Shown: piece by piece, positions 16,802 through 52,194 of the stretch | Layout: each line of letters begins with the position of its first letter | How positions within the stretch are numbered: the first letter of the stretch is position 1 | Assembly (NCBI GenBank): GCA_035368605.1 | Contig: DAOSLF010000004.1 | Span: 29,388 to 93,387, forward strand | Source of the DNA: Candidatus Omnitrophota bacterium | Lineage (GTDB): Bacteria > Omnitrophota > Omnitrophia > Omnitrophales > Aquincolibacteriaceae | Length of the DNA stretch: 64,000 nt | Reading direction: 5' to 3' | Translations under genes and position numbers: made by a program | Notes under the pieces: generated by a model | Told to the model about the DNA's origin: nothing | What the model saw: only the letters and a program-made list of their open reading frames with translations | The model's database searches: none

Positions 16802-19800
16802 TTACGCGGATCTCGCAATAAGCGCCCGTTCGACAAACCGTTCGGCGATCGAGGCGATCGTGAGAGCGCCGATCGTGAATCCCGACGTTCCCTTCTTGCC
16901 GTAATTCGGAACAATATCCTCAAGGACTTTCAGGAGCGTGTCCCCGCTCAGCTCAGCAACCGAGGAAAGCTCGACAATGAGCCGGCCGATCAGCTTGAGA
17001 TCACCGCGCCCGACGTTGGCTGTAACAGCGAAGTTATTGCCGCCTTCAAGCAATTCGAGGACAGCCTCGTCATCAAAGAGCGTGGCGATCTTCCCGTCAA
17101 GACTGGCGGTCAGCGTTTTAACAACGCCGACTTCGGTCTGCCCCGCCGCGAGAACATGGATGCCGAGAATCTCTCCGGACTTCAGGGCGGCAACAATCTC
17201 ATCACGCTCCCTGAAATCCTTCGGGGCCACCGCATTCTTGCGGTAAAGCGCCTTTATCATCTCTTCGAACATTCCGGCATCCCCCGAAGTCTTGAGCAGG
17301 GTCTTCACGCCGGCAGCCCTGGCCTTATCGCGGTAGATCTTCAGAACATCGAACAGCGTCCCGGCGTCCTCGCGGATGAACCGGTTCATAAAGCTCCCGC
17401 TCACATAGAACGTGCCGTTGGATTCCAGGTCCTCCGGCGACATGACAAGTTCCGTTCTCTGGCCCGCGGTAAAATACTTGTCCAGTAGCGCCGTTTCGGG
17501 AGCGCGGGTCGCGGCGCTTGCCTTCGAGATACCGACCTTTGCCATCAGCATCCCCAGGACTTCCGTGCCGTGGCGGAACTGTTCCATGACCGCCTGACGG
17601 ACCGTTTCGGGGAAGATCCCGAAGCGCAGGTGCCGCACGAAAGCGAGAAACGAAGGCATCGTGATCCGGCGAAGATCAGGCTCGAGGTCTTTAACACCGA
17701 ACCCGTCTTGCGTGTTTGCGGGAACCGCATTCACCGCGACCGACGTCGTCGGGAGCGTCGGGGAGATCCGGGCTTCAGCACGAAGGGCCCCTGCGGTTCC
17801 GTCATACCCCTGAAGTCCGTTTTTCCGGAGTTCCTGAATATCGACACGCCGTCCTTCCATCACCCGCTTGATAATGATCGGATACAATTTAAGATTAGCC
17901 ACCCAGCTTTCCACAGGTCCTTCCCACTGCTTGGTAGCCAGAAACCGGAACACAACCCGGTCCATAAAAGCAGCCTTGTCATAATCCGAAAGCGCGTTAA
18001 AACGATCCATATCGAATTCCCGAAGGCTGGCTGTGCCGACCGCCCTCACTCGCACATTGTCAGAAACCTCACCCGTAACTTCATGCATGTTTCCCTCCGC
18101 CTTGCCAAGGCCGATGACGCTCAGGTCTTTCGAGGGTTTCGGGTCGAAAAGCAGCGGCAATTTCGCACGTCCACGCTCCGCGAGTTTCTCCAAAGTCCCT
18201 TTGGATCTGGCATCGCGCATCTCGTTGACGAAATCATCAAAAGACTGCGTCGCATCCCTCCGGTAAATGTCCGCAATGTATTTTGGCGTATAAATAGCAA
18301 CTGCGTTATTCATCCCCACAACATCCGCGGAATTCACTTTCCGGATGAGCCGGTAGTCCCCTTCGGCATTCCTGAACACGGCGATCCGCGACTCTTCTTT
18401 TTCTTTATCAGCATTCGCCAACTGCCGAAGCCCCTTGACGGTCATGATCGTCTCTGTTTCATAGGAGAGGTCCGTCGGCTCGATTTCGATGCTCTGGCCG
18501 GCCATAATCTTCGCCTCCAGATCGGACAAAACCCCTGCAGGAAGTTTTTCGGGTGTTTTTCCCTTGCCGGTAGCGGGATCGATTTGCAACTGTCTCCGCC
18601 AACCATCTTTCTCATAATCCGCGACAATCCGTTTCCAGGTCGCTTCAATGGAAGGGTCTTCCGCGATCCGGTGATTGCCTCTTTGCCCAATCATCCAAGC
18701 CCCGCCTTTCATCCCGGGCCCGCGACGCGACACCTCAAAGATCGCGTCATAACCCTTGCGATCCATCCACCCCAGTAATGTTAAAAAATTAGCGTCATAG
18801 GTTGCCGCGGCGTTGTCTATATTCCGGAACGGAATATATTTGATCCCCGCATCGATCAAGTCGAGAAGGATTCCCTTAGAGACCATTTGGTGGAAGAATT
18901 CGGCATGTCCCGCCGGATCCCGCTCCGTGGGATGGATCACCGCTTCAGGGTGACCGTTCGCGATCGCCGCTTCAACTTCTCTAGCCTTCTGAATGCTCGC
19001 GTCACGCCTTGCGTTGTGTTCTTCAATAGGGACTTCCGGAGAAGCTTTCACGGCGGTCGCATAAGCCTTGGGAATATCCCGTTCGCTCAAATAGAATTTT
19101 GGCGCGAGATCCTGCTGAAAACCGATTCTGCCCTGATTGCGAACAAACTGTTCCCCAGGAATCCCATAAAAACCGTTCCGCTTCAGCTCTTCGTTGAGTT
19201 CCTCCTGATAATTAGCGTTGGTCATGATGAGAACCCGGTTCTTCGACGTGGACGCACCCGACACGGCCGAGGAAACCTCTCTGAGAAGCATGCCGATATC
19301 CGTGAGCATCAGCCCCATGTAGGAATAAACCCGGTCACCGTACTCTCCAATAGGCGTCGCTCCCTTACTCATGAGCTTGTGCCCCTTCCCATGAAGTTTG
19401 TCGATCATGGAGAGAGCTCCCGCGGGCACCTTATCGGTCGACTGACGCGACGATGCACCCGCAGCAGCCGTGGCAAACGCGACCACGCCGCGCGCCACCA
19501 ATCCAGCGCCTCGCGAGGCGTCTTCTTTCCGTCCCGTTTCTGGCCATTGGGACATCTGGATTTCACGGAAATCGGCATCCTGACTTGGACGAACGGTTCC
19601 GCGGATTCCCGTCGGCCTCAGAGTCCCGGCAAACAATCCTACCCCGCGCGCAATCTCCGCTGCGGTCGCACCGACGCGCATTTCTGCCCGAATTCCCGCC
19701 GCTCCTGCGCGGATCGCGCGGGCATCGACAAAATCAAAGACGGTCTGCGCAATATCGTCCGCGGTGGATTGAACGGAAATCCGGTTCCACAAATAGCCGT

Positions 19801-22800
19801 CCGGCAGCTTATAGACCTCTTCCAGTTTCAGTTCGAGATCGCTCACATAAACAGAGTCCAGAACCGTCCCGACCTGATCACCGTCCTGATAAGGGACCAC
19901 CGATTCTTCGGAGATCAGCCTGATCACTTCAACCTTGATCTCGTCCCGCGTCAACGCCACAGTTGTCTCCCCATGACGGATACCCTCTCCCGCCCTCAGT
20001 TCCTGACGTGACACAAGACTTCTCTGGCCGGGCATTTCGACACGAGGCTTCGCGCCCACGGGACGAACTCTGAGTTTTCCCTTCACGATCCGAATCTCAG
20101 CCTTGGTCGCGCGGTCTTTGATCATCCGGGTCATCCTGCTCACCAGGGCAAGCTGCACACCCCGTTCGCTGTAATGACGGAACTCCCCGGTCCTGACCTC
20201 GATCGGGAGATCCGACTGTTTGAACCTCACGATCATTTCAATCGCATTCACAAGGCTGTTGACCGGAACCTGCCAGGTGTCAACCCCGACCGTCCGGATA
20301 TAAGATGGCAGCGCCGGCGTCTCGACAGCTTTGACCGCTCCCGCCCGAAGTTCCGCGCGTTGAGATTCCGGAGCGGGCTTCGGGGTGACTAATTGACGAC
20401 GAACTTCCCGGGTCAAAAAACCCGTCAGGTAAGCGCAGAGGATTTCTTTACTAACATCAGATCCTTTACCTTTAAGCTGATCCAGGAAAAGACGCATGGC
20501 CTCAGGACCTTCCGTCGCGAACCTCAGGGCCAGCGCGCGAAAAAGGGCATACTCCGAAACTCCCTCCATCAATTTCCCGATCCTGTTTTCCATCATCCAA
20601 TTGCCTCCGGCCATCAGCATCATGTGGAAATCATTCAAAATATCGCTAAGGGCCTCGAGAATGTCTGTGTGATGTTTCCCGCGCGAGGCATCTTCCCAAA
20701 GCGACTGAAGCCGCCGAAGGAACGGGACGTCGGGACGCCCCTGGGCGTCCTTGAACGCCACGCGACCAAGCCGGGCTCCTTCGAGTTGCGCATTCCCGCG
20801 GATCGCCGAATGCCGCGCGAGCATCCGCTTCCCCTCCTTCGAGATCCAAAAATCTTCAGGTACCGCCCTCCATTCGACAGTGACGGGCAGTCCTTTGACC
20901 TGACCCACGCTAAAGCGGACCGTTTTGAATTGCTGAAGAATGCTCGCAACGCTTTCCTCCGCGGCAAAAAGCACAAAACGTTTGGAGCCTGCGCGGCTCA
21001 AACCAAGAACTGAAATATCCCTGTTGTATGGAATACCGCGAGCGTCCTTGCCTCCCGCGGTAAAGCTGAGGTGCATGCCCAAACCGGACGCGGGTTCTTG
21101 CTTCACGGAAAACGTATCGTCCTTATTCTTCAGAATGAAATGGTACGGGGAAATGGGCCCCCAATCGGTGTAATAATGGCTGCGCATCATGCGCAAAAAA
21201 ACAAGCTCCTGTCCCCCATCAAGCTTCAGAACAGCCTGCTCGGGACGATATGTTTCATGATTATCAAAACCACCGAGATACCGAAAATTGGGATCTTGTT
21301 TCAGTTCCTCCATAAACCGATCCGGCGCCTTCATGAAGCGCAGTTCGTCGTCGGTCGCCCGCGGCAGATCACCCCGCATTTCGGCGCGGCCGGGCGTAAT
21401 CACGCCTTCTTTTTCAGGAACATTCCTCAACCCGGAACGCATGCGGACTTCCCGGCGAACAGCTTCGGCATCTTCAGATTCGTCGATCCCGGAACCCTCG
21501 ATCACGCCATTCCAGGTCGCGGAGGTCACTTCAACCCCGAGTTTACCGAGGATGTAGGAGCGGACATCACCCGCCGCAAACGGATCCCGGGCGAACTCTT
21601 CAGCGAACTCCCGGTATTGGGATTCTGTGATCCCATAAATCTTCGCCCACTCGATGTTTTCACTTTCGGAACGCACTTCATCCTCAAATTCCAATGTCCC
21701 CATGAGTCCGATGCCCCCGATGAAAAATCCAACCGCTGCGATCGCTTTAAGCAAATCGAGAACCGCCGAGCCCCTCGTCCTTTCAGCCTTGGTCCCCTTG
21801 CTGGGTAAGACGGCTCTCTTATCAACAGGCATTAACCGGAAAGCGGGATGGATCGCGAAAACAGCTGCGCCTGATCTTTCAGGCGGGGCCAGCATCGGAT
21901 TCACGGGGAGCTCAACGCGGTCACCGCGTGTTCGGGAGCGCGTCGCCTCGAGAGCCCTCAGAATCGCGTCGTGATTCTTTGTGTAAAAACTCTCCGCCTG
22001 CTTGTCATTCAAACCTGCTTCGCGAAGCGCGTAGGCGATCACATCAGCGATATCGCTATGCTCGTCCTTGAGGATCGTTAGGTTCGTCCGACTCCCTACG
22101 GCATCGAGAAAAAAATCGACATCTCCTTTGATATAATCGCGAAGATCCGCAGCGACTCCAGCGACCATAGCTTCCGCGTTTTCCCGCATTTCGGAACGCC
22201 GCGGCATCGCGTTGATTCTCGCAAGAAGCTTGCGCGAAAAATCCCTTACCCAAGGGTCTTGGTGATTCAGCAATTCCGGGAGGTTTGAAGCGAGGAAGTT
22301 CCGGAGAATCGGCTCATTCGCCACGCGTCCGAACCAGGCTTCCCTCTCACGTTGCCTTCCATGGTTCCCGTTTTTGAGATCCCAAAGAAGCATTTCGTCA
22401 TAAATGGGGCTGGGCGATTCTTCACCAGTGCGCCATTCCGAGCGCGCGGGCACAGTTTCCCGTTCTTGCACATCCGCCTCGAGTTGTTTGATCAGGGCCT
22501 TCCGGGCGGCGATCTGATTATCGAGAGACGCCAGTTGTTTGAATTCCCTATACTTGGGATGATAGGCTTTCGGGTTCGCGGCCAGAAGTTTCCTGTTGTT
22601 TTCCATGACGGAAAGGTTCCCCTTCTCCCGGCGAAGAAGATTACGCGCGGCCTCGAGATCCTTGTCATAAACGGGATCGGACATACGCGCCTCAGCCCGT
22701 TTACGGGGGGAAGTCTCTTCAGGAACATTATCCTGCTTTTTATACCCACCGTAACGATAGAGTGAGTAAAACGCGAACACAAAGAGCCCGGCACCGGCAG

Positions 22801-25630
22801 CGATCGCGGCATAAGACAAAAATCCCAAAGCGTTAACGATCATATTGGAATTAATAAAAACCAATGGGAGGAACCCACCGAATTCGGTCGAACGCCTGGG
22901 GCGCAGCTCCGTTCCCGACCCGCTCCGTTCCTCGGAGATCACTTTATCGAGATGAACGGTTCCGTTCGTGGACCTGACGATAAAATGAAGCCCGTCCGGT
23001 CTTTTCCGGAAATTCCAGATGGTCTGCTTCGGATCGAGCAGAACAGATGCCATAGCCGTGTCCTCGAACGGAATCTCCCCGACCACCGTCAGGACCTTGT
23101 TCCCTTTTTTGGAGATAACCGTGGAAGATTTGCCGGTCCGGGTGACGATCGGAAGCCGGCGGGGCGCGTCGGAGAGGATATAGATCCCGAATTTGCCATC
23201 GATGAAAGTCACGGCGATATCGCCAAAGAGCTTCGCGCGCATGGGCAGATTCCACAAGCGGTTGTTTAAATATTCATACCGCATGTCGCCGATGTCCTTC
23301 ACCCATTTCACTCCAGCCCCGGCCAGCTGCATCTTGTAGATCTTCCCGTCGGTCGTCTCATGGAAGAAGAAAACCTTGAGGATCGTCTGGACATCCCGAA
23401 GAAACGCCTGAAAGTCACCGCTACGCTTGAACGCTTTCAGAAGAGCTGCCAGAAGATCGTTCGCCCTCGTTTGGGGTTTTGCGGTACTTCTCTCCCTCGC
23501 CTCGGCGCGGGCAAGAGCGGAAATGATCGCGCGGTGATGATTCTCAAAAAAGACCTCAGCCTCCTCATTATTAAAACCTTCGCCGCCGAGCGTCTCATAG
23601 ATTTCCTGCGACACATCGGGGAATTCCTCACCGACCTGGGCCAGGGTTGTTTTGTTCCCCAGCGCCGTCAAAATCAGGTATCTGTCACTGGAAACGGCCT
23701 TAAGCAGATTATCCACAATGAGGTTTATCAGGGCGTCGGTCCCGGCAACCTCCCGCACCGGATCTTCCCGGGTTTCCGCGCGGAGTTGCAACGCAAGTGC
23801 CCGCGCGGCCCCGGGATTCCCGGCAAGGACGGGCAGCGCGGCGCGATATTCGGCACGGGCAAGAGCTTCGGCATCAACACCCATTGCCCTCAATTCGGCA
23901 GGCGAAGCGGACACAAACGGGGATTCGCGGGTGGAGCGGGTCACCGGGGACTGGCCGCTGGTCACTGGTTTAATACCGGCAACAGGAGACGGGCGACCAG
24001 CGACTGTCTGCAACGTGTGATTAATGTAGGCCTCATATCCGGCTTTATCCGCATCGGTGATCCTGGGCGACACAAGCGCATAGGTGTAGCCCCTGGAAGA
24101 GAAATAGTCACGGAAGGGTTCGGAGTGAAAACCGCCGGTCACGACAGCCACTTTGTCGGCCCCTGTTTCAAGGAGACGTTTTTCGATCATGCCGATCATC
24201 GCGAGGTCACGGGCCTTGACACCCTCATAGAATTTCAGGGCGCTCGCGTAAAGGGCGTCCAGTTCGCCGGTATGCCTAAAACGGACATCCTTCACCCGCT
24301 TTGACGAGCCGGCCACAGCCTTCTCAAAACGCTTTGCGATCACAGAGGGCGTCAGTTCCGTGGTCCGCTTTAAAAGAGCTTCATAGTCCGCGGGCGTCAG
24401 CTCAAGCGCGAACAGCTTCTGAAGAAGCCGGTAGTCCTTGAGAAGCGAGATCACGGTTTTTTCGGTCGCCGTGCGGGCGAGCTTGTCCGTGACGGCATCC
24501 GTCAATTTCCCGGTCTCGTTCATGAGCGCGGCCGCCTTGAGCTCGCTCGTAAGGATCAGCGTGCCGATGAAGGCGCGGACATTCGGGAAAAGGGCGTAAT
24601 TGAAATCCTGGGGAAGCTGGCGGGTCATTTCTTCAAAAAGAAGGCTGGTCTCGGGATCGGGCAACGGCTGGCTCACCGGATCATTTTTCAGAATCTTTTC
24701 GACGGCGGCGCAGACGCCCGCCCCGGGAATGAAACGCCTGATCGCCTTCAGGAACGAGTCCCGTTCCTTCGGGAGCTTCTTCGCGTCGAGTTCCCGCTGA
24801 AGCTTCCTGATCATGAAAAGCCGCGTTATCATGGGCCATTCAAGCTGTTCGGCGGGATCCCCGAGCTCAAGCTTGAGCGTCCGGGACGATTCTTCCTTCA
24901 GATAGGTAAACCACGCGTCCGGGGGCATGATCTTCTTTTCAAAGGACTCTTGCGTCCGGACGAATTTGCGGAGGTTGTCGTTGAGGTACGGCGCGGAAAG
25001 ACGCTCGATCCCCTCATTCATCTGCGCGAGGAAACCGGAGGTCTTTTCTTTTTGGGTCAACACTTCGACAAAGGCCTCGCCGTTCGCGCGGTATGCGGAG
25101 GCCTCTTCGATGCCATATCCTTCGGCCGACCCGGGATGCCGGACTTTATCGAGAAGGTAAAGTTCGGGACCTTTCACGATCGCGCTCTTCGTGAGCCGGT
25201 CCGCCACCTTCGCCGTAAGCTTGGGGTCCCTGGGGAAGAAGTTCAAGAGTTCGGGACGGAGCCTGAAAGCGCTTCCCTCGACAAGGAGCGTCCGGATGCC
25301 GTAATGCTTGTCGAGATGATGCAAGATCTGGCGGATCTTCTGCTGGGCGTCGTAGTGACCGTGAGCGGTCTGGATATGCACGACGCCCGGTCCCCGCCCC
25401 AGTTTCAGGTCCTCGATCTTCCCTATGTCCCGCGGCAGCGCGAACCGCAGGTTCGTATCGAGAACAGCCTGATACGGGAGATTCACTTCCGACATTGTTG
25501 CCGCGGCAAAAGACACTCCGGGTGTCCAAAGGGTCGTCGCGATGAACGTAACAAGCGTGACAAAAGCAATGGCGGGTTTGAATCTGCCGAAAGAAGAACT
25601 TGAGGCACTTGTGCTGTTTTTGCTGTCCAT
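16802..25630 (-). CDS. Giant (2942 aa) multidomain membrane protein of unknown function.
   Basis: A single uninterrupted 8829-nt ORF. Signal-peptide-like N-terminus FVTLVTFIATTLWTPGVSFAAA. N-terminal region with paired GxxH motifs (HIQTAHGH, VVTGGFHSEP), TraB/GumN/Tiki-superfamily-like. Hydrophobic TM segment about residues 920-960 (LPLVFINSNMIVNALGFLSYAAIAAGAGLFVFAFYSLY). A second possible TM helix lies near residue 1300. A UDPGP-family (UGPase-like) nucleotidyltransferase-like domain lies near the C-terminal third. No homologous full-length protein is recognised. Confidence 0.85.
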   Translation of the reverse strand: MDSKNSTSASSSSFGRFKPAIAFVTLVTFIATTLWTPGVSFAAATMSEVNLPYQAVLDTNLRFALPRDIGKIEDLKLGRGPGVVHIQTAHGHYDAQQKIRQILHHLDKHYGIRTLLVEGSAFRLRPELLNFFPRDPKLTAKVADRLTKSAIVKGPELYLLDKVRHPGSAEGYGIEEASAYRANGEAFVEVLTQKEKTSGFLAQMNEGIERLSAPYLNDNLRKFVRTQESFEKKIMPPDAWFTYLKEESSRTLKLELGDPAEQLEWPMITRLFMIRKLQRELDAKKLPKERDSFLKAIRRFIPGAGVCAAVEKILKNDPVSQPLPDPETSLLFEEMTRQLPQDFNYALFPNVRAFIGTLILTSELKAAALMNETGKLTDAVTDKLARTATEKTVISLLKDYRLLQKLFALELTPADYEALLKRTTELTPSVIAKRFEKAVAGSSKRVKDVRFRHTGELDALYASALKFYEGVKARDLAMIGMIEKRLLETGADKVAVVTGGFHSEPFRDYFSSRGYTYALVSPRITDADKAGYEAYINHTLQTVAGRPSPVAGIKPVTSGQSPVTRSTRESPFVSASPAELRAMGVDAEALARAEYRAALPVLAGNPGAARALALQLRAETREDPVREVAGTDALINLIVDNLLKAVSSDRYLILTALGNKTTLAQVGEEFPDVSQEIYETLGGEGFNNEEAEVFFENHHRAIISALARAEARERSTAKPQTRANDLLAALLKAFKRSGDFQAFLRDVQTILKVFFFHETTDGKIYKMQLAGAGVKWVKDIGDMRYEYLNNRLWNLPMRAKLFGDIAVTFIDGKFGIYILSDAPRRLPIVTRTGKSSTVISKKGNKVLTVVGEIPFEDTAMASVLLDPKQTIWNFRKRPDGLHFIVRSTNGTVHLDKVISEERSGSGTELRPRRSTEFGGFLPLVFINSNMIVNALGFLSYAAIAAGAGLFVFAFYSLYRYGGYKKQDNVPEETSPRKRAEARMSDPVYDKDLEAARNLLRREKGNLSVMENNRKLLAANPKAYHPKYREFKQLASLDNQIAARKALIKQLEADVQERETVPARSEWRTGEESPSPIYDEMLLWDLKNGNHGRQREREAWFGRVANEPILRNFLASNLPELLNHQDPWVRDFSRKLLARINAMPRRSEMRENAEAMVAGVAADLRDYIKGDVDFFLDAVGSRTNLTILKDEHSDIADVIAYALREAGLNDKQAESFYTKNHDAILRALEATRSRTRGDRVELPVNPMLAPPERSGAAVFAIHPAFRLMPVDKRAVLPSKGTKAERTRGSAVLDLLKAIAAVGFFIGGIGLMGTLEFEDEVRSESENIEWAKIYGITESQYREFAEEFARDPFAAGDVRSYILGKLGVEVTSATWNGVIEGSGIDESEDAEAVRREVRMRSGLRNVPEKEGVITPGRAEMRGDLPRATDDELRFMKAPDRFMEELKQDPNFRYLGGFDNHETYRPEQAVLKLDGGQELVFLRMMRSHYYTDWGPISPYHFILKNKDDTFSVKQEPASGLGMHLSFTAGGKDARGIPYNRDISVLGLSRAGSKRFVLFAAEESVASILQQFKTVRFSVGQVKGLPVTVEWRAVPEDFWISKEGKRMLARHSAIRGNAQLEGARLGRVAFKDAQGRPDVPFLRRLQSLWEDASRGKHHTDILEALSDILNDFHMMLMAGGNWMMENRIGKLMEGVSEYALFRALALRFATEGPEAMRLFLDQLKGKGSDVSKEILCAYLTGFLTREVRRQLVTPKPAPESQRAELRAGAVKAVETPALPSYIRTVGVDTWQVPVNSLVNAIEMIVRFKQSDLPIEVRTGEFRHYSERGVQLALVSRMTRMIKDRATKAEIRIVKGKLRVRPVGAKPRVEMPGQRSLVSRQELRAGEGIRHGETTVALTRDEIKVEVIRLISEESVVPYQDGDQVGTVLDSVYVSDLELKLEEVYKLPDGYLWNRISVQSTADDIAQTVFDFVDARAIRAGAAGIRAEMRVGATAAEIARGVGLFAGTLRPTGIRGTVRPSQDADFREIQMSQWPETGRKEDASRGAGLVARGVVAFATAAAGASSRQSTDKVPAGALSMIDKLHGKGHKLMSKGATPIGEYGDRVYSYMGLMLTDIGMLLREVSSAVSGASTSKNRVLIMTNANYQEELNEELKRNGFYGIPGEQFVRNQGRIGFQQDLAPKFYLSERDIPKAYATAVKASPEVPIEEHNARRDASIQKAREVEAAIANGHPEAVIHPTERDPAGHAEFFHQMVSKGILLDLIDAGIKYIPFRNIDNAAATYDANFLTLLGWMDRKGYDAIFEVSRRGPGMKGGAWMIGQRGNHRIAEDPSIEATWKRIVADYEKDGWRRQLQIDPATGKGKTPEKLPAGVLSDLEAKIMAGQSIEIEPTDLSYETETIMTVKGLRQLANADKEKEESRIAVFRNAEGDYRLIRKVNSADVVGMNNAVAIYTPKYIADIYRRDATQSFDDFVNEMRDARSKGTLEKLAERGRAKLPLLFDPKPSKDLSVIGLGKAEGNMHEVTGEVSDNVRVRAVGTASLREFDMDRFNALSDYDKAAFMDRVVFRFLATKQWEGPVESWVANLKLYPIIIKRVMEGRRVDIQELRKNGLQGYDGTAGALRAEARISPTLPTTSVAVNAVPANTQDGFGVKDLEPDLRRITMPSFLAFVRHLRFGIFPETVRQAVMEQFRHGTEVLGMLMAKVGISKASAATRAPETALLDKYFTAGQRTELVMSPEDLESNGTFYVSGSFMNRFIREDAGTLFDVLKIYRDKARAAGVKTLLKTSGDAGMFEEMIKALYRKNAVAPKDFRERDEIVAALKSGEILGIHVLAAGQTEVGVVKTLTASLDGKIATLFDDEAVLELLEGGNNFAVTANVGRGDLKLIGRLIVELSSVAELSGDTLLKVLEDIVPNYGKKGTSGFTIGALTIASIAERFVERALIARSA

Positions 25631-44121: not shown

Positions 44122-47100
44122 CTATACAGACTTCTTCGGTTTTACTTCCACCTCAAACACCGTACCGCGAACACCGGTCAGCGCGGTAGGCGTACGCACT
44201 TCGAATTTCGATACACCTCTAAGGGGCTCAACCTTGGCGATCAGTTTACCGATCGCAAGGTCCAGCAATGTCGTATTACTATTACTGACGGGATCCTGTT
44301 CCATCTTCCGGATGCGGAACAAACTCCCGCCCTTCAGCTCGATCTTCCCGACCTTGCCACCGTCGAGTGCCAGCACCACGGAATCACGGCCGGCCGTCTT
44401 GACCTCATCTCCCGGCAAAAGGACCATGCCATCCTCCGCCGCGATCCAGTCCCCTCCGCGATTCTTCACAAATACATCCCGCCCGGGATTCTTGAGAGTC
44501 CCATAGAGGATCCCTTCGGGGATCGGATCCGGGGCCGCAGGCGTGGCGGCCTGAGGAGCTTCCTGCCGGCGGATAAACTCTTTTTCAATGCGCTTCGCCT
44601 CCTGTACGGCTATCTCCTCAGCGGAAGTGATCATTGGTTCGGGCTCAGCTTTTGCGGAAGCTGTCTTTTGTTCCGCCCGGTCCTGCTTGGATGTCAATTG
44701 CGAGGACATCCCTTTCTGGGCTTCAGCCAGCGAAAGAGCCTCCATCGCCCTCTTTTTAGCCTGGGCAAGTTTCCGTTTCTTATACATCACGCGATAAGTG
44801 TGCCCCCAATCCAGAAACTGAAGATGATCCCCGTTATCCAGAACGTACACTTTCCCTTCCCTGACATAAACATCCGTAATCAACTCCTCGCCGAGATCAT
44901 CCTGGTTCAGGATATTGTCCCAGGAAAAATGGCCGTTCAGAATATCATCGTCGACATTATCTCCCCGGATGTCATTGCGGGAATCATTACCGTCAGAAGG
45001 ATCGTCAGGGAGGTCCGGGTAGTTGCCCTGATCATCGCCACCAAGATTGATCCCGTCGCCTTCAATGGTCACAACGGCGGGATCCCCATCATCAACCCCC
45101 GGAGGATTCGTCCCGTTCCCGTTGGTTTCATCATCGATCGTATTGTCGATCGTGTTGTCGGTGCTATTCGTAGGGTCGCCAACGCCGGGTCCCGGGGGCG
45201 GGGGGGCCGCGGAGGTAATACTAACGCTAAGCCCTGTCGGCTGGGACACGGTATAGTTGTCTTTATCAAAACCGGACAGAGTGAAACCTGTCACGAGCAC
45301 CGACCATGTCCCCACATTCGCCTCCGCAGATGTCCCGGAAGCCAAACTCGAGTCCAACAAGACTTCATCGCCACCAATCCCCCCGACTAAAGCCGCCGTG
45401 GTGGTGTCCAACGTTACAGCGGTTGAACCATCGTAGATTTTATTGGCAACGCTGACCCCCGTGATCGTCAGCTCCTTCGCCGTGATATCCGCGGTCAATC
45501 CCGCCAAAGGAGCCACGGTGTAATTGGAAGCATCGGTCCCCGACAAAACAAGATCCGTCACGGTAACAGTTTTTCCATTCCCAACGCTCTTGTTTGCAAA
45601 GACGCCGGAGCCCAAACTCCCATCCAGTGAAACATCATCACCCCCGATCACTCCTGTGATCGAAGCACCGCCCGTGACAAGTTCCGCATTTACCGTCCCG
45701 TCATACACCTTGTTGCCGGCCGCGATCCCGGCAAGCGTTACAGCCTTCGCCGTAATGTCCGCGGTCACGCCCAATGATCCTACGCTATAATTAGAAGCAT
45801 CCGCCCCCGAAAGGCTGAGGCCGCTGATTAAAACGGCTTTTTCGATGCCAACGTTCTTGTTTACAAAGGTCCCCGTGATCCCCGAATCGTCCCAACTCAC
45901 AACATCCCCAGCCACAATACCCGTCAAGGAAGCGGTCCCTGCCACCGTAGCATCTGTCGTCGCGTCATACACCTTGTTGCTGGCAGTAACCCCCGTGATC
46001 GTCAGCTCCTTCGCCGTAATATCCGCAGTCGTCGTGTCCTGGTCCGTCACCGTGTAATTACCGAGATCCGCACCTCCCAAAACATTCGTCAACGTCACCG
46101 TCTTTCCCTCACCGACGTTCTTATTGTCAAACACGCCGTTAGACGAAACCGTCAACTCATCCCCCGCGATCATCCCCCCGAATGATGCCCCCGTCACAGA
46201 CACCTCCGCGCTCACGCCCCCGTCATACACCTTGTTGCCGGCAGTGATCCCGGAGAGCGTTACAGCCTTCGCCGTAATGTCCGCGGTCGTCGTGTCCGTC
46301 GAAGAACCGAGTGAATAATAAATGGCGTCATCCCCGGTGAGTGAAATTCCGCTCACGTTGACGGCTTTTCCCGTCCCGACATCCTTGCCATCCGCAAAAA
46401 CAGCATTGTAGCTGTAACCGATTTCATCATAACCGGAGAGTTTATCGTCCAGAAAACTCACGGTCGCCGAGGTCAGGCCGTCATACACCTTGTTCGTTCC
46501 CACAGCATCCGCGGTTAACAGGATCTTGGCCGCCCCGCGATCGATCGCCAGATTTCCAAACGTAAAATTGGCTCCACGGGTGTAGATCGTCGTCCCGGCG
46601 CCCGACGACCGGCCCAAATGAAGATCGTGATAGGTCTCATGATTGGGAAGGATCTGGTCGGTGTCAGACTGAAGGTTCAGCGTTCCTCCCGTCCAATCGG
46701 TCCTGGCCGCATTGACATCCGCTTCTTGATAGGTTGCGTTCGCACCCCTGACAGTCACGGTGTTCGCTCCGGAGACAAAGGAACCGTCCGTCACCTTGAA
46801 CTTTCCGCTTACATTCATTGCGCCCTGCAAGGTCCACTCCCCGCCCGAACCGGTGAAACTGATATTATAAAAAGCATTCTCCAATCCCCCAGTCGTGATC
46901 TGCTTCCCTGAGGCGCTCCCATCAAAAGTGACCGTCCCGGTCCCGGCGTTAAAGGTTCCGCTATTCATCCAATCCCCGGTCACATAAATATTGGCAGGGG
47001 CATTCAAAGTACCGCTGTTGACAAGACTCCCGGCAAGATCCACATCCCCACCCGGACTGAATGTCACCGCCGAGGGGATCCAAAGATCGACGCCATTCAC

Positions 47101-50100
47101 CGTCAGCGCCCCGCCGGCCACGGAGTAATAAACATTCGGGTTGCTGTAGTACGCGGAGCCCAGGATCGAGTTCGTAAAACTTGTTCCCGCCACCCCGTCC
47201 GCATCTCCGATCGAAAGACGGCCGTCATACATCAGCAGTCCCGAAACATCACCCGCGGACTGCACGACCCCGACAAGGTTCGCCTTGCAGGATGCATCGT
47301 TGGCATAGATCAGCACATATTCGCCGCCGCTCAAACTGAGAGAACCAAAACTGAACGCTCCACCGCCAGTCGTGGTCGTCGTAACAGGCGCGGCGCCATT
47401 AAATGAAAGAGCCATCGAAATCCCGGCCCCGAGACCGCTGACAAGTCCCGCGATCGTGTAAGTCGCGGGAGGAGGAGGTGTTGCGTTTTCCCAATGAAGT
47501 CTCGGGAGCGCGCCCGCAAAACTGTCCCATACGGGAACTGTCGTAAAATCCCACGGCGTAGCACCGGTATACACCGCGCCACCCGTCCCGCTTCCTGTCC
47601 CATGGAAATCACTTGCCGCGGCGGCTTTCTCGGCCATTCCATCGACGCCATAGCCAGAAACAGCGGGATTATTTCCTATCGCATAGGTGTTCGTTTCGTT
47701 ATACCACCAATTATTCGTTAGCAAGAAAGAAACATATTGAGCGCCCACCAGAGCTCCCGGCGTGGCATTCGACGCTGATGCGACACCGGTGCTGAAGGAA
47801 TTGCTGATCTCGGAATCAATATTACCTCCCACCAGGCCACCGACGTTTGAATACCCATCTACGTTGCCCGTCGCATAGGAGTTCTTAACCGACGAAACAC
47901 CGTCATCGTCTCTCACCAGATACCCCACCAAACCACCGGTGGCAGAGGCTCCGGTCACATTAGCCATGGAATAGGAGTTGGTCACGGTCGAATTATTGCT
48001 ATACCCGATTAACCCTCCGGTATGACCACCACCGCTAACAGTGCCGGTCGAACAGGATCTCACGACAGCTGTATTATTACGAGCATACCCCGCCAAACCA
48101 CCCACAAAAGCATTGCCACTAACACTGCCATTCACGAGGCCGACATCAGATATCCTCGCTCCATCCGCGCTTCCCAAAAGTCCAACGTAATTCTCTCCCG
48201 GGCGGTTAATGGTAAGACCCGTGATCGTCTTTGAATTTCCTTCCAGGGCTCCCGTAAACGGATCCCCCGGAGATCCACTCCCCACCGGGTCAAACCCGGC
48301 GCCGGAATTCCAATTCGCAGTCGATGTCGCATCAATATTACTATTCAAACGGAAGTTGCTTGAAAGATAACCTTTCATCGCCTGGAGGTCGTAAACATCG
48401 CGGATCAGATACGGGTCCTCCGGAGAACCCGCGCCCGTGTAACGATTGAACGTCTCGCTCCCGGAATCCGGCACGCTGAAACTTCCGCCGACCGTGAAGG
48501 TATGAAGCGTGGGAGCCGCATCCGAATACGCGCCTCCGGTCTGCGTGTAATCGCCTGTGATCGCGACATCCCCGCCCTGTGTGAAAGACCCGCTACTCAA
48601 AGTGAAATCACCGCCGACGTTCAGCGTCGCTGTGCTCGAATAAGTTCCGGCAATCGTCAGGTCCGCGTTCGAGACGGTCACGTTGCCGCCCGGAGCAAAC
48701 GCGATGCCCGTGGGCACCCAGAGATCGATCCCGCTTAACGTTAAATCCCAGCCGTTCAAGGCATAATGAACATTCGGGTTGCTATAGTAAGCCCCGCTGA
48801 GAGTCGAGTTGGTAAAATTCGTTCCGACCACCCCGTCCGCATCCCCGATCGCAAATCGGCCATCGTGCATCGCAAGACCGGCAATATCACTGGCCGATCT
48901 GACAATTCCGACAAGACCGGATTGATAAGAACCATCGTTGACATAGATCAGCAGATATTCGCCGCCGTTCAGCGTGACCGAATCGAAACTGAACGCTCCG
49001 CCGGCGGTCGTGGTCGTCGTCACGGGCGCCGCCCCGTCCAATGAAAGCGCCATCGAGATCCCGGCGTCAAACCCGCTTAAAAAGCCCGCGACCGCGTGAG
49101 TGGATGAGGCGGGTCTCAAACGGGGAGTGTCGCCGACCCTCGAGGACCAATCGGCCGCGAAATCCCAGGGGCTACCTCCGGTGTAAACGCCCCCTCCCGT
49201 ACCGCTCCCCGTCCCATAAAAATCGCTCAGCGCGGCAGCCTTGGTGACCCCGGGAGAAGAACCACTCCCCACACCCACCGTGTTCGTTTCGTTGTACCAC
49301 CAATTATTTGTGAGAGACCCCGTATATCTGGGCTGATACCCGACCAGGCCGCCCGGAGTATCGGAACTCGAGGTTGCCACACCCGTACTGTACGAATTCG
49401 TAATCGAGGATGTGTCGTAATCATTTCCTAGTCTTCCCACCAAACCTCCTGTGTTATTTTTCCCGGTCACATTTCCAGTCGCATAAGAACGATCGATCGA
49501 GGATGCCCCTGTCAAAAATCCGACTAACCCTCCAAGATCTCTATAACCATTCACACTACCCGTCGCATAAGAATTTGTAATGGTAATATTTTCAAAAGTA
49601 CCCCCTACTAATCCGCCGAGATAATAGCTCACACTTCCTGCGGTCACCGAGCCCGTTGCATAAGAATTACTAATCGCAACCTTTTGCGCAGCCCATCCGA
49701 TCAAACCTCCCGCACGCGAACCATATCGATCTGTGAGAGTTACATTGCCCGTCGCATGGGAGTTGGTAACGGCAGCGTTCCACCAAGCCCTTCCCACCAA
49801 ACCACCGGTACCAACGTCACTGGCATCGCTTCTGACGGCTGCTTCGGAATAGGAATTAACAATGTTAAAATCACTACCGGCACCCAAAAGACCGCCGACG
49901 CCGTCTGAACCTCCGACAGTTCCCGTGCTATAAGAATTACTGATAGACGTCCCGCCCCCAGCATGCCCGACAAGCCCACCGACACCATTACTTCCGGTCA
50001 CGGCGCCCTGATTGTAGGATCCGCTGATAATAGTGGGCCCATTACTATTCCCCACCAGGCCGCCCGTGACTGCCCCGCCTCGTACACGACTGCTTAAAAG

Positions 50101-52194
50101 ACCAATATTCCGGATCACCGCGCCAGAGACATAGCCAAACAACCCAACATTCTCTTCACCTGGACGATTGATGGTGAGCCCGGTCACCGTTTTTGTACTG
50201 CCGTTCAATGAACCGGTGAACGCATATTCCGGATGTTCTCCGTCATAATTCCCCACCGGATCGAACCCCGCACCGGAGTTCCAGTTAGTCGTACCGGAAG
50301 CATCGATATTGTCATTCAGTTGGAAGGCCGAGGAAAGAAAACCCTTCATGGCCTGAAGTCCGTAAACGTCGTAGATCATGTAAGGATCTCCGCCCGTTCC
50401 GGCACCGGTAAACCGATTCAGCTTCGCGTCACTGTTGATCCTGAAATCCGTGATCCCCGTCCAGGTCGTGGCCGTCGGAGAAGCGGTGAATGTCGCACCT
50501 CCTCCGAGGGTGAAGATTCCGACATTTGAGATACTGCCCAGGCTTGAAGCACTCGCAGCGGTGATCGTTAAATTATAGCCCCCCCCGGCAAGGGATCGAT
50601 CCGATGCCATCGTAAAAGCTCCGGAAGCATTCCAGACAACATTCCCGAGGAGTGTCAGGTCGCTTGTCACATTGAAATTCACGTCATTATAAGTTCCGGC
50701 CCCGATATTGCCGCCAATATCCGCCGCAAGATCCGTATTATCGAAGTAACCATTCCCGGCTCCAAGGATTCCCGTGGTCCGGAAGGTATAGCCATGCTCG
50801 TAAAAACGATCCGCTAAAAGCGTCCCGCGATTCTCAATGATTCCTTCGGTTCGGATTTCAATACTTCCCTGCTCGGCTTCCAACACCCCGGCATTCGTGA
50901 CATCTCCCGTTTCGGAATCGAGAAAGATTTCGCCATTCGATGCCTTGATGATCGCTTCATTCAGAATATCCTCGCTCGCGGCGATCTCAATCTTCCCCTT
51001 CTCCGCTTCCAGAAGGCCGGTATTCCGGAAACCGCCGGTTTGTGAATCAAAAAGAGCCAGACCGTTCGAAGCCGTGATGATCGCTTCGTTCACGATATCA
51101 TCAAAGGCATCCAGGGAAAGTTTCCCGCCCTTCACATCCAGCGTCCCGGCATTCAAAAATCCGCCTTTCGCGGTCCCGACAGAAAAGCTCCCGTCACGGG
51201 CACGGACGATCGCGTTGACGTAAACATCATCCAGGGTCAGGAACTCGATGCTTCCGTTGTCAGCGCGGATCGCCTCGACAGCCTTGTCGCTACGCTCAAT
51301 ATTGATCGCTTTTTCGAAGAGCCCGTCGATGGCTTTGGCGGTAAGCGATATTTTGCCTCCGTCCGCTGTAATGGAGCCGGAGTTTCTGATCTGATCTTTC
51401 AATCCGAGCTCATTCGCCGTCGCTTCATCCACACCGATCGACACCATGCCGTCTCCCGAAATACCGATCGTCACCACGTCTCCCGCGGCGAGCGCCACAT
51501 GCCCCATCGGCACATCAATCGCGCCTTTGTTATCAATCGCATTCGCTACCAGCGCCACGCGCGCCGCGTCGTGGCCCTGGATGCGTCCGTCATTCGTGAT
51601 CAAGCCCTGTTCGCCTTCGAAGAGGTACTGATGGGTGAGGAAATTCGAGGCGTTGAGGTTGAGGGGCAGGGTTGTCGCGATGAAGGACGCATCCCGGACG
51701 TTGACGAGGCCGGTAGCGCCGATATTGATGCCATAGATATTCTGCAGGATGAAATCCAGGTTACTCAGGTTCATCGTGCCGAATATGTTAGTCGCACTTC
51801 CCCCTCCCACGAGAAGTGCAAGGCTTGAGTTGTCTGAGATGCCTGTGATGTTATACGTGCTCCCCGCCGCGACGTTGAATTCCGGCACGTTCCACACCGG
51901 ATTCCCACTGACGTTCCAGTTCGTCACAGTGCCGTCCGCGGAGATGTCGATCGTGCCGCCATCTACGGTGACGATTTCCGCAGAGACGGGGGCAATGGTC
52001 ATGGAGAAGGCAAAGATAAAGGCGGTGAGAGATGAAATCAACTTCCGGGAGTTGGGGATGTGAAACCCGGGGATCGGGGCCAAGGGCCGGAGACCCGTTG
52101 TTAAAAACAGGCCCCGAGGGACGAAGCCCGAGTCCCGGAACATTTGATCTTCAAATCCGTATAGAGTTTCGCAGGTTCCCTGTTTCATAACCAC
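44122..52194 (-). CDS. Giant (2690 aa) secreted filamentous-haemagglutinin-like exoprotein with TPS domain, GLUG repeats, MBG repeats and FecR-like C-terminus.
   Basis: A single uninterrupted 8073-nt ORF. Extended signal peptide (SSLTAFIFAFSMTIAPVSA). TPS/haemagglutination-activity-type N-terminal domain (NWNVSGNPVWNVPEFNVAAGSTYNI...LALLVGGGSATNIFGTMNLSNLDFILQNIYGINIGATG). Two blocks of GLUG-like repeats (GGLVG...NSYATG). Four to five MBG repeats (ADITAKxxTITG...NKVYDG...NYTV). D/N-rich acidic tract. C-terminal FecR-like beta domain (GTVFEVEV). Confidence 0.85.
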   Translation of the reverse strand: MVMKQGTCETLYGFEDQMFRDSGFVPRGLFLTTGLRPLAPIPGFHIPNSRKLISSLTAFIFAFSMTIAPVSAEIVTVDGGTIDISADGTVTNWNVSGNPVWNVPEFNVAAGSTYNITGISDNSSLALLVGGGSATNIFGTMNLSNLDFILQNIYGINIGATGLVNVRDASFIATTLPLNLNASNFLTHQYLFEGEQGLITNDGRIQGHDAARVALVANAIDNKGAIDVPMGHVALAAGDVVTIGISGDGMVSIGVDEATANELGLKDQIRNSGSITADGGKISLTAKAIDGLFEKAINIERSDKAVEAIRADNGSIEFLTLDDVYVNAIVRARDGSFSVGTAKGGFLNAGTLDVKGGKLSLDAFDDIVNEAIITASNGLALFDSQTGGFRNTGLLEAEKGKIEIAASEDILNEAIIKASNGEIFLDSETGDVTNAGVLEAEQGSIEIRTEGIIENRGTLLADRFYEHGYTFRTTGILGAGNGYFDNTDLAADIGGNIGAGTYNDVNFNVTSDLTLLGNVVWNASGAFTMASDRSLAGGGYNLTITAASASSLGSISNVGIFTLGGGATFTASPTATTWTGITDFRINSDAKLNRFTGAGTGGDPYMIYDVYGLQAMKGFLSSAFQLNDNIDASGTTNWNSGAGFDPVGNYDGEHPEYAFTGSLNGSTKTVTGLTINRPGEENVGLFGYVSGAVIRNIGLLSSRVRGGAVTGGLVGNSNGPTIISGSYNQGAVTGSNGVGGLVGHAGGGTSISNSYSTGTVGGSDGVGGLLGAGSDFNIVNSYSEAAVRSDASDVGTGGLVGRAWWNAAVTNSHATGNVTLTDRYGSRAGGLIGWAAQKVAISNSYATGSVTAGSVSYYLGGLVGGTFENITITNSYATGSVNGYRDLGGLVGFLTGASSIDRSYATGNVTGKNNTGGLVGRLGNDYDTSSITNSYSTGVATSSSDTPGGLVGYQPRYTGSLTNNWWYNETNTVGVGSGSSPGVTKAAALSDFYGTGSGTGGGVYTGGSPWDFAADWSSRVGDTPRLRPASSTHAVAGFLSGFDAGISMALSLDGAAPVTTTTTAGGAFSFDSVTLNGGEYLLIYVNDGSYQSGLVGIVRSASDIAGLAMHDGRFAIGDADGVVGTNFTNSTLSGAYYSNPNVHYALNGWDLTLSGIDLWVPTGIAFAPGGNVTVSNADLTIAGTYSSTATLNVGGDFTLSSGSFTQGGDVAITGDYTQTGGAYSDAAPTLHTFTVGGSFSVPDSGSETFNRYTGAGSPEDPYLIRDVYDLQAMKGYLSSNFRLNSNIDATSTANWNSGAGFDPVGSGSPGDPFTGALEGNSKTITGLTINRPGENYVGLLGSADGARISDVGLVNGSVSGNAFVGGLAGYARNNTAVVRSCSTGTVSGGGHTGGLIGYSNNSTVTNSYSMANVTGASATGGLVGYLVRDDDGVSSVKNSYATGNVDGYSNVGGLVGGNIDSEISNSFSTGVASASNATPGALVGAQYVSFLLTNNWWYNETNTYAIGNNPAVSGYGVDGMAEKAAAASDFHGTGSGTGGAVYTGATPWDFTTVPVWDSFAGALPRLHWENATPPPPATYTIAGLVSGLGAGISMALSFNGAAPVTTTTTGGGAFSFGSLSLSGGEYVLIYANDASCKANLVGVVQSAGDVSGLLMYDGRLSIGDADGVAGTSFTNSILGSAYYSNPNVYYSVAGGALTVNGVDLWIPSAVTFSPGGDVDLAGSLVNSGTLNAPANIYVTGDWMNSGTFNAGTGTVTFDGSASGKQITTGGLENAFYNISFTGSGGEWTLQGAMNVSGKFKVTDGSFVSGANTVTVRGANATYQEADVNAARTDWTGGTLNLQSDTDQILPNHETYHDLHLGRSSGAGTTIYTRGANFTFGNLAIDRGAAKILLTADAVGTNKVYDGLTSATVSFLDDKLSGYDEIGYSYNAVFADGKDVGTGKAVNVSGISLTGDDAIYYSLGSSTDTTTADITAKAVTLSGITAGNKVYDGGVSAEVSVTGASFGGMIAGDELTVSSNGVFDNKNVGEGKTVTLTNVLGGADLGNYTVTDQDTTTADITAKELTITGVTASNKVYDATTDATVAGTASLTGIVAGDVVSWDDSGITGTFVNKNVGIEKAVLISGLSLSGADASNYSVGSLGVTADITAKAVTLAGIAAGNKVYDGTVNAELVTGGASITGVIGGDDVSLDGSLGSGVFANKSVGNGKTVTVTDLVLSGTDASNYTVAPLAGLTADITAKELTITGVSVANKIYDGSTAVTLDTTTAALVGGIGGDEVLLDSSLASGTSAEANVGTWSVLVTGFTLSGFDKDNYTVSQPTGLSVSITSAAPPPPGPGVGDPTNSTDNTIDNTIDDETNGNGTNPPGVDDGDPAVVTIEGDGINLGGDDQGNYPDLPDDPSDGNDSRNDIRGDNVDDDILNGHFSWDNILNQDDLGEELITDVYVREGKVYVLDNGDHLQFLDWGHTYRVMYKKRKLAQAKKRAMEALSLAEAQKGMSSQLTSKQDRAEQKTASAKAEPEPMITSAEEIAVQEAKRIEKEFIRRQEAPQAATPAAPDPIPEGILYGTLKNPGRDVFVKNRGGDWIAAEDGMVLLPGDEVKTAGRDSVVLALDGGKVGKIELKGGSLFRIRKMEQDPVSNSNTTLLDLAIGKLIAKVEPLRGVSKFEVRTPTALTGVRGTVFEVEVKPKKSV
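45240..46510 (-). repeat. MBG-type repeats within giant gene 2: four clear units of about 88 aa plus one degenerate leading unit.
   Basis: Repeated ADITAK(A/E)(V/L)T(L/I)(S/T)G(I/V)...NK(V/I)YDG...(V/A)G(D/G)(D/E)...NK(N/S)VG.(G/E)K.V.....L.G.D..NY(T/S)V. Periodicity is about 265 nt at the DNA level. Confidence 0.7.
46860..50430 (-). repeat. Internal tandem duplication inside giant gene 2: two copies (about 1.98 kb and 1.59 kb) of a module.
   Basis: The module is: [L/F]NR[F/Y]TGAG..DPY[M/L]I.DVY.LQAMKG.LSS.F.LN.NIDA, then a GLUG block, then LTNNWWYNETNT, then GTGSGTGG.VYTG.PWDF, then PRL, then A..AGL.SG..AGISMALS..GAAPVTTTTT.GGAFSF, then GGEY.LIY.ND. The protein segments match closely. The DNA shows a near-identical 29-nt stretch (gtgttcgtttcgtt[g/a]taccaccaattatt) at about 49279 and about 47688. 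Confidence 0.7.

Follow-up and report, generated by a model that had tools for sequence, protein, structure and literature searches.

The window analyzed here, a stretch of 64,000 nucleotides from a Candidatus Omnitrophota bacterium, encodes on its reverse strand a giant protein of 2,942 amino acids (aa) (NCBI HOE68458.1; Table 1). A preliminary description made from the sequence alone had recognized in it a nucleotidyltransferase domain of the UDPGP family, resembling eukaryotic-type UDP-glucose pyrophosphorylase (UGPase or UGP), with a degenerate glycine-rich loop. Our profile comparisons and structure prediction indicate that this is a real and complete domain of the UDPGP fold (UAP/UGP) within a giant membrane-associated protein, and that its loop is different rather than degenerate. 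The identical 2,942-aa protein is also encoded on a second NCBI contig (JAKPKJ010000084, GCA_029553765.1), on two JGI metagenome contigs and in Logan assemblies, and NCBI automatic annotation has already named HOE68458.1 "UTP--glucose-1-phosphate uridylyltransferase."

The preliminary description had proposed a Pfam profile search, a comparison with UGPase and UAP structures and an inspection of the catalytic residues as checks. The search gave a significant match to PF01704 (UDPGP; 32.6 bits, threshold 22; E = 4.7e-8) between residues 2238 and 2326 (profile positions 163 to 248), and PF01704 was also present in all homologues examined. When the protein was compared with PDB sequences by phmmer, Leishmania UGP was matched at E = 3e-4; a profile built from the protein's own relatives matched the PDB UGPases at 4e-14. 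Furthermore, hhalign aligned the family profile with 22 canonical UDPGPs at a probability of 99.9% (E = 8e-34), loop to loop and Lys to Lys. An AlphaFold2 model of residues 2021 to 2610 had a predicted local distance difference test score (pLDDT) of 83.9 and a predicted template modeling score of 0.83, and its 50 best Foldseek matches were all UAP or UGP. The UAP/UGP-type Rossmann-like nucleotidyltransferase fold is thus predicted over the whole catalytic core. The domain assignment therefore stands, and all six peptides that had been quoted in its favor are present in the reading frame where they had been placed. The range originally given, 18300 to 19410, covers the middle of the unit, but the conserved module is wider on both sides, and the true glycine loop as well as the C-terminal third (NNAVA, ERGR..K, EGNMH and RFLATKQW) lie outside that range.

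Four of the six motif pairings first suggested (LIMTN, PAGH, NIDN and EVS..KGG) were confirmed by our alignments, whereas the other two were not. The peptide FVRNQGRI, previously set against FNQSRYPRI, is not the equivalent of that motif, which is GFQQDLAPKF (aa 2170 to 2179). Likewise, KLHGKGHKLMS, which had been taken for the counterpart of KLNGGLGTSMG, belongs to an insert of 23 aa, and only its final Ser, followed by K2089, falls in a conserved motif. The real loop is TAAAGASSRQS, which is conserved across the subfamily described below. The reading of a degenerate loop is thus unsupported, because it was based on a misalignment. Nevertheless, the canonical loop signature, either KLNGGLGTxMG (UGPase) or L-x2-G-x-G-T-x-M-x4-P-K (UAP), is absent. 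In its place we found TAAAGASSRQS, 23 aa and SK, which preserve just three residues of the signature: the central Gly (G2058), the Lys (K2089) and, as in UAP, the Arg. For this reason, the module is not a UGPase or a UAP in the strict sense. The positions corresponding to the phosphate- and sugar-contacting set (H2242; N2270, D2272 and N2273; K2308-G2309-G2310; R2562...K2567) are all present and conserved in the family. Among these, RFLATKQW was equated with canonical RFxPVK by collinearity only (canonical consensus in alignment A4), as it lies outside the part aligned by hhalign.

To delimit the family, we searched 1.84 billion cluster representatives exhaustively with HMMER, at a subfamily cut-off of E <= 1e-30. 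This recovered 86 representatives, which matched over the whole profile, and canonical UDPGPs formed a separate tail at about 1e-15, with a match confined to the central 90 residues. The family was visible solely by this exhaustive search; a word-indexed homology search returned only 7 to 8 relatives. The window module itself matched the family profile at full length (positions 8 to 485; hmmsearch i-E 6e-177). Ten motifs were common to 61 full modules: xLAAGASSRMN, SKAxVP, P(L/A)GHGEF(F/L)HQ, (R/K)N(I/V)DNxAA, EVSPRxPGQKGG, AEDP, WFN(N/D)AVA, AERGRxKFPxLxDPKPA, KxETNMWQSTG and RFLATKQW. With the window copy included, three of them read AAGASSR(M/Q), P(L/A)GH(G/A)E and E(T/G)NM(W/H). Across 69 proteins, 10 columns were invariant (G2058, K2089, G2241, D2272, N2273, G2309, G2310, N2441, G2487 and E2512) and 23 were at least 90% conserved, including R2062, H2242, N2270, E2299, R2303, K2498, R2562, K2567 and W2569. 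Both K2089 and D2272, which bear on the proposed inspection of catalytic residues, are thus invariant, and both are kept in the window copy. Overall, this copy retains 54 of the 63 columns conserved at 85% or more, every core position included. It deviates at M2063Q, A2090G, V2092T, G2243A, T2513G, W2516H, Y1999L, I2483L and V2533T, as do its closest relatives. Judged from this conservation, the loop is a different, selected loop and not a degenerate one, and such a pattern matches an active enzyme family, not a decayed domain. By profile score, motifs and conservation, the AAGASSRM-type proteins represent a distinct, undescribed subfamily of the UDPGP superfamily.

The subfamily differs in several respects from eukaryotic-type UGPase/UGP2 (PF01704; PDB 3r2w, 2oef, 1z90 and 3gue). 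AAGASSR(Q/M) replaces the canonical NGGLGTSMG, the 23-aa insert precedes the Lys, NNAVA stands in place of NTNN, and ERGR..FP..DPKP and ETNMW are specific to the subfamily. In addition, some members carry an inserted subdomain of about 100 aa. It appears as alignment gaps in the short ones, as a drop in BLAST coverage from about 119 to 28 sequences and as a region of lower pLDDT (50 to 84). We detected neither a C-terminal beta-helix nor an oligomerisation domain, the identity is about 15 to 18%, and, unlike UGPase/UGP2, the window module sits in a giant, apparently exported protein. UAP1/AGX1 (PDB 1jv1, 4bqh and 8yp3) gave weaker HMMER scores than the UGPases. Its loop signature is not literally matched by the window module, which also reads G-H-A-E and not G-N-G. 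In UAP, G-N-G is part of the motif that binds N-acetylglucosamine (GlcNAc).

Related loci were found in Omnitrophota (closest match, 51% identity), Elusimicrobiota, Planctomycetota and one Binatota metagenome-assembled genome (MAG). The members from Pirellulaceae and other Planctomycetota are standalone proteins of 450 to 570 aa, none of which (0/14) had a signal-peptide-like N terminus. In Omnitrophota and Elusimicrobiota, the module is part of a longer protein, of 0.7 to more than 6 thousand aa (kAA). The standalone Pirellulaceae genes (loci L018, L020, L025, L026, L030 and L032) have recurrent flanking genes, which encode a DUF7133-HEAT-cytochrome c protein (about 1,200 aa), a Zn-dependent dehydrogenase, an HpcH/HpaI aldolase and a 2-hydroxyacid dehydrogenase. 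As a clue to a pathway, these neighbors gave no clear link and may be mere synteny of close relatives. In several Omnitrophota and Elusimicrobiota MAGs, the module gene is one of two to three consecutive same-strand open reading frames (ORFs) of 1.7 to 3 kAA, as in L008 (3-5681, 6149-11920 and 12175-21288), L036 (518-7246, 8444-13690 and 13807-19149), L009 and L005. Two or more tandem copies or fragments of the module occur in P0009, P0011 and P0035; in P0009, two full copies (aa 829-1365 and 1369-1905) are separated by the repeated linker PVSSAIEISQAAQQIEAQ. Two further bacterial proteins of the UDPGP family, P0109 and P0147, are more canonical (loop LAGGMATRFG) and also have signal-peptide-like N termini; apparently exported UDPGP-fold proteins therefore extend beyond the AAGASSRM-type subfamily. 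A literature search on bacterial PF01704 returned nothing relevant.

Table 1. Features of the giant protein gene in the window (positions within the 64,000-nucleotide stretch)
Feature	Nucleotides	Strand	Residues (aa)	Basis or remark
Giant ORF, 2,942 codons	16802..25630	(-)		ORF list and translation; NCBI HOE68458.1, Candidatus Omnitrophota bacterium
Signal-peptide-like hydrophobic segment (...VSFAAAT)	25496..25579	(-)	18-45	Hydropathy, preceding K/R
Candidate EreA/ChaN/TraB/Tiki-type fold domain, ~480 aa	24011..25438	(-)	~65-540	Motifs HIQTAHG..., VEGS, TGGFH
Predicted transmembrane helix	22754..22822	(-)	937-959	Kyte-Doolittle peak 1.79, positive C-flank
Predicted transmembrane helix	21692..21763	(-)	~1290-1313	Kyte-Doolittle peak 1.97; N-flank +6, C-flank acidic
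RAEMR delimiter	19676..19690	(-)	1981-1985	Directly upstream of module
UDPGP-like nucleotidyltransferase module, ~630 residues	17783..19675	(-)	1986-2616
Nucleotide-binding loop TAAAGASSRQS	19439..19471	(-)	2054-2064	Opposite family xLAAGASSRMN and canonical LNGGLGTSMG (family alignment, hhalign)
Family-specific 23-aa insert with KLHGKGHKLM	19370..19438	(-)		Gap against canonical UDPGPs (hhalign); variable in family alignment
S2088-K2089, counterpart of canonical (P)K after loop	19364..19369	(-)	2088-2089	K2089 invariant; SKAxVP aligns to canonical PKS.v.V
FQQDLAPKF, counterpart of canonical F-x-Q-x-x-x-P-R	19094..19120	(-)		Q2173 invariant in alignments A1 and A2; aligned by hhalign and HMMER
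PAGHAE	18899..18916	(-)	2239-2244	H2242 = Leishmania UGP His191 (HMMER alignment to 4m2b); G2241 invariant, H2242 at least 90%
NIDN	18812..18823	(-)	2270-2273	D2272 and N2273 invariant, N2270 at least 90%; aligned to UGP SNGDN/SNxDN
EVS..KGG segment	18701..18736	(-)	2299-2310	G2309 and G2310 invariant; aligned to UGP EV..K....KGG
Inserted alpha/beta subdomain, ~100 aa, between AEDP and NNAVA	18335..18643	(-)		Only part of family has it
RFLATKQW, counterpart of canonical RF-x-P-V-K lysine motif	17924..17947	(-)	2562-2569	R2562, K2567 and W2569 at least 90%
RAEAR delimiter	17768..17782	(-)	2617-2621	Directly downstream of module
C-terminal module, 321 aa	16805..17767	(-)		Fold and function without assignment; no Pfam or PDB sequence match
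R-x-E-x-R sites 1-6	23843-23857, 23768-23782, 23495-23509, 22685-22699, 22430-22444, 22184-22198	(-)
R-x-E-x-R sites 7-12	21443-21457, 21374-21388, 20345-20359, 19994-20008, 19676-19690, 17768-17782	(-)

From these data we infer that the module is probably an enzyme that would convert a nucleoside triphosphate (NTP) and a sugar 1-phosphate (sugar-1-P) into a nucleoside diphosphate (NDP)-sugar and pyrophosphate (PPi), as one cassette of a membrane-anchored, multi-module protein. The likeliest substrates would be UTP and a hexose 1-phosphate such as glucose 1-phosphate (UTP + hexose-1-P -> UDP-hexose + PPi). The cassette would be part of a signal-peptide-bearing Omnitrophota protein, with RAEMR and RAEAR at either end. 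In UGP and UAP, the Gln of the F-x-Q motif contacts the uracil base, and an invariant Gln is a mark of uridine-specific enzymes. The strongest indirect indications come from the homologues of 1.4 to 4.8 kAA, which carry 2 to 4 enzyme families each. A UDP-glucose/GDP-mannose dehydrogenase is fused to the module in P0024 (complete, aa 1169-1614, directly after the module) and in P0039, a GT5 starch-synthase domain together with GT1 in P0018, and a four-domain phosphoglucomutase/phosphomannomutase (PGM/PMM) in P0014, P0033 and P0028. Other fused enzymes are nucleoside-diphosphate kinase (NDK; P0020), NUDIX (P0054) and phosphoglycerate kinase (PGK; P0036). Taken together, they would form a coherent route from glucose 6-phosphate through glucose 1-phosphate to NDP-glucose and on to NDP-glucuronate or glucan, with regeneration of NTP. 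As the fusion partners would supply sugar 1-phosphate and NTP and consume NDP-glucose, and as the F-x-Q Gln is invariant, UTP and a hexose 1-phosphate appear to be the most likely pair. An active nucleotidyltransferase with another substrate pair, making ADP-glucose (for the partners of the GT5 starch-synthase type), UDP-GlcNAc or a product of some other phosphorylated acceptor, seems unlikely to us, given this base-contacting Gln and the recurrence of PGM and UDP-glucose/GDP-mannose dehydrogenase as partners.

We then considered where such an enzyme would reside. Topology was assigned from Kyte-Doolittle hydropathy and a positive-inside heuristic, with no dedicated predictor. The giant protein has a signal-peptide-like segment at its N terminus and two predicted transmembrane (TM) helices. 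From the flank charges of the second helix, the C-terminal ~1,630 aa (aa ~1317-2942), module included, are predicted to lie outside the cytoplasm. Among the multi-module proteins of the family, 33 of 44 have a signal-peptide-like N terminus of a typical Sec type, and 29 of these show no further hydrophobic segment before the module. A different arrangement, which we regard as possible though short of probable, is a metabolon tethered to the membrane on its cytoplasmic side and serving envelope or exopolysaccharide synthesis, the signal peptide being an uncleaved anchor or the topology being mispredicted. Indeed, all partner enzymes require cytoplasmic cofactors such as NTP and NAD+, and a helical hairpin at aa 917-959 could flip the C terminus inside. 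In the data of Nielsen & Lui (bioRxiv 10.64898/2026.06.07.730766), 46% of long Omnitrophota proteins are TM-only, with the bulk of the polypeptide in the cytoplasm, and West-Roberts et al. (bioRxiv 10.1101/2023.11.21.568195) voice the same caveat about the glycolytic domains of Omnitrophota giants. However, the N termini have the look of standard Sec signal peptides, AxA-type site included, and the 29 proteins without a further hydrophobic segment ahead of the module are at odds with a cytoplasmic location. In the window protein, the three hydrophobic segments all obey the positive-inside rule under a single-helix model; under the hairpin model, the rule is broken at aa 1290-1313.

Several points weigh against an active, exported nucleotidyltransferase. 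The G-A-S-S of the loop departs from canonical G-x-G-T and is followed by the 23-aa insert, the Pfam match covers just 86 of the 413 PF01704 profile positions, and the window copy differs from its own family at M2063Q, G2243A, T2513G and W2516H; its specificity or activity could therefore differ. Moreover, the fusion argument comes from homologues only, as the window protein has no recognizable partner enzyme. The topology call is heuristic, and West-Roberts et al. caution that such calls may be wrong in Omnitrophota giants. Finally, an NTP-dependent enzyme predicted outside the cytoplasm is hard to rationalize. The GASS loop, the four deviations, which affect near-invariant positions close to the predicted active site, and a predicted location outside the cytoplasm, where NTPs are scarce, would also suit a non-catalytic nucleotide- or nucleotide-sugar-binding pseudo-enzyme with a sensing or scaffolding role within the giant protein. 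Between the two options of the preliminary description, altered specificity and a non-catalytic module, this is the less likely one because the subfamily loop is conserved and 54 of 63 columns are kept, and we consider it highly improbable. Indeed, all core positions (G2058, R2062, K2089, H2242, N2270, D2272, N2273, G2309, G2310, E2512 and K2567) are invariant or nearly so over some 60 distant modules and are kept in the window copy, identical motifs occur in the standalone cytoplasmic members of Planctomycetota, and the module is fused, in homologues, to enzymes of its own presumed pathway.

The module is bracketed by two short motifs of a kind that recurs along the giant protein. We counted 12 R-x-E-x-R pentapeptides (about 1.5 expected), 10 of which are R[SA]ExR (0.2 expected from composition); the types are RAEMR and RAEAR (three each), RAELR, RSEMR, RSEWR, RQELR, RREVR, RAETR and RAEYR. 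The sites fall between presumptive modules. RAEMR ends 8 residues ahead of the first conserved position of the module, and RAEAR starts 20 residues past the last one. R[SA]ExR was not enriched in any other ORF of the window. A cause at the nucleotide level, such as a recoding signal or an RNA motif, was ruled out by the codon differences from site to site, which imply a constraint on the peptide. In the nine homologues with at least three motifs, one lies 3 to 8 residues ahead of the module in eight and 6 to 20 residues past its end in five, and none lies inside the module. The repeats can be numerous: RSELR, RSEMR or RSEAR occurs up to 18 times in homologous giant proteins, with 18 R[SA]ExR (14 of them exact RSELR) against 0.3 expected in P0028 and 11 against 0.4 in P0050. 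In other lineages, the equivalent places are taken by D-x-A-M (9 against 0.3 expected in P0014) or A-[AS]-S-L-G. Furthermore, standalone proteins start exactly at the post-motif sequence (e.g., P0027, MKNSEIEKGVAYF…), and the N terminus of P0008 is the Met of an apparent …EMR motif. By their positions, these motifs mark the boundaries of protein-sized units, and they are lineage specific and repeated almost identically within a protein. This pattern would fit their recognition by some co-evolving factor, for instance a protease. The bracketing of the module by R[SA]ExR, here and in homologues, appears to be new; the literature, searched for the pentapeptides, yielded nothing but noise.

One reading of these motifs, tentative and in our view somewhat unlikely, is that R[SA]ExR, and D-x-A-M or A-[AS]-S-L-G elsewhere, are putative processing sites at which exported Omnitrophota and Elusimicrobiota giants would be cut into autonomous enzymes, the giants being polyproteins. 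The released enzymes (UDPGP-like, PGM, UGDH, GT5, NDK and PGK) would then make up a nucleotide-sugar pathway that is complete in itself and operates beyond the cytoplasm of the producer, be it in the periplasm or on the surface of the producer or within a host or prey cell. A candidate processing hydrolase would be the N-terminal domain with its candidate EreA/ChaN/Tiki fold, whose recurrence at the N terminus appears to be new. We did not find a strict co-occurrence of this domain with R[SA]ExR in the proteins compared, and the case for it as the processing protease stays weak because many proteins have the domain but not the motif. Multi-effector toxins of the MARTX type and viral polyproteins provide a functional analogy only. 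Unlike these, the window protein has no detected cysteine protease domain (CPD), C39, RTX repeats or type I secretion system (T1SS) signal, the modules of its family are metabolic enzymes of a housekeeping type and not known toxins, and cleavage at R[SA]ExR is putative.

Among the closest known systems are the multi-enzyme giants of Omnitrophota. West-Roberts et al. 2023 described cytosolic-type sugar enzymes that are predicted to be extracellular in Omnitrophota giants, and Nielsen & Lui 2026 defined a class of "multi-enzyme metabolic clusters" that is rich in GT5, GT1 and PGM and of which 94% have a signal peptide (SP) and/or TM segments. The window protein belongs to the same phylum (by NCBI organism name and closest loci in Omnitrophota MAGs), combines SP and TM segments by hydropathy and has few Pfam matches, and homologues of its module line up cytosolic-type sugar enzymes (GT5, GT1, PGM and NUDIX) along one polypeptide. 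It is a small relative of this class. Indeed, at 2.9 kAA it is well below the published catalogues, which begin at 10 or 30 kAA, and with 2,942 aa and one Pfam family it falls outside class 1 of Nielsen & Lui 2026 (at least 10 kAA and many enzyme Pfams). The preliminary description had held the fusion of a UDPGP domain to a giant protein to be undescribed. Multi-enzyme giants of Omnitrophota are the subject of two preprints, so that the fusion is not new in kind, and the protein already carries a UGPase name at NCBI. Nevertheless, neither UDPGP nor PF01704 is mentioned in the main texts of West-Roberts et al. 2023 and Nielsen & Lui 2026, and to this extent the claim holds.

The remainder of the giant protein gave few matches. 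PF01704 was the single Pfam family above threshold in the 2,942 aa, NCBIfam gave no match, and neither Pfam nor PDB sequence searches gave a significant match for aa 622-712, 713-935, 983-1290, 1320-1419, 1420-1757, 1763-1874 and 2622-2942. An acyl-carrier-like segment suspected at aa ~1915-1975 (…VLDSVYVSDLELKLEEVY…) was dropped, being unsupported by Pfam (E <= 1) and by phmmer against PDB. The C-terminal peptide of the window protein, …ALIARSA* (16805-16830(-)), is nearly identical to that of a relative with 48% identity (P0008, …ASIAKSA*) and could serve as a conserved C-terminal signal. Two copies of a helical module of some 95 aa lie at 23495-23767(-) (aa 622-712) and ~21925-22220(-) (aa ~1137-1235), …LINLIVDNLL…FFENHHRAIISALARAEAR against …LRDYIKGDVDFF…FYTKNHDAILRALEATRSR; the copies are about 32% identical and a delimiter motif adjoins each. 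One variant, P0010 (2,672 aa), is nearly identical to the giant protein but about 270 residues shorter, the missing stretch falling somewhere within aa 815-2762; this points to a strain-level gain or loss of a module or to an assembly collapse. The window holds a second giant ORF of a different kind (44122-52194(-), 2,690 aa), with an N-terminal filamentous-haemagglutinin-like region, GLUG-type Gly-rich repeats, YDG/"ADITAK" repeat units and a C-terminal FecR-like segment; it has no R[SA]ExR motif. The neighboring genes are ordinary chromosomal ones (TyrRS, an ABC-2 transporter with auxiliary proteins, LpxA, FabF, ribosomal protein S1 and aromatic amino-acid biosynthesis) and, all being housekeeping genes, give no functional clue to the UDPGP-like module.

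Overall, these data would define a compact, well-conserved branch of UDP-sugar pyrophosphorylases with a different nucleotide-binding loop. The branch is directly accessible to enzymology, through its standalone members in Planctomycetota and its modular ones in Omnitrophota and Elusimicrobiota. With the predicted activity, it would supply the missing activation step (sugar-1-P -> NDP-sugar) to the sugar cassettes of Omnitrophota giant proteins (PGM, GT5/GT1), which strengthens the view that these giants carry whole pathway segments. Of greater interest is the arrangement of cassettes bracketed by motifs, which is suggestive of polyprotein-like processing. In published work on giant genes, the cleavage points are unknown, which blocks structural and functional dissection; the bracketing by R[SA]ExR offers concrete candidate module boundaries or cleavage points. 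If these are true processing sites, the choice between one giant protein and many products would become testable, and giant ORFs could be divided in silico into foldable units.

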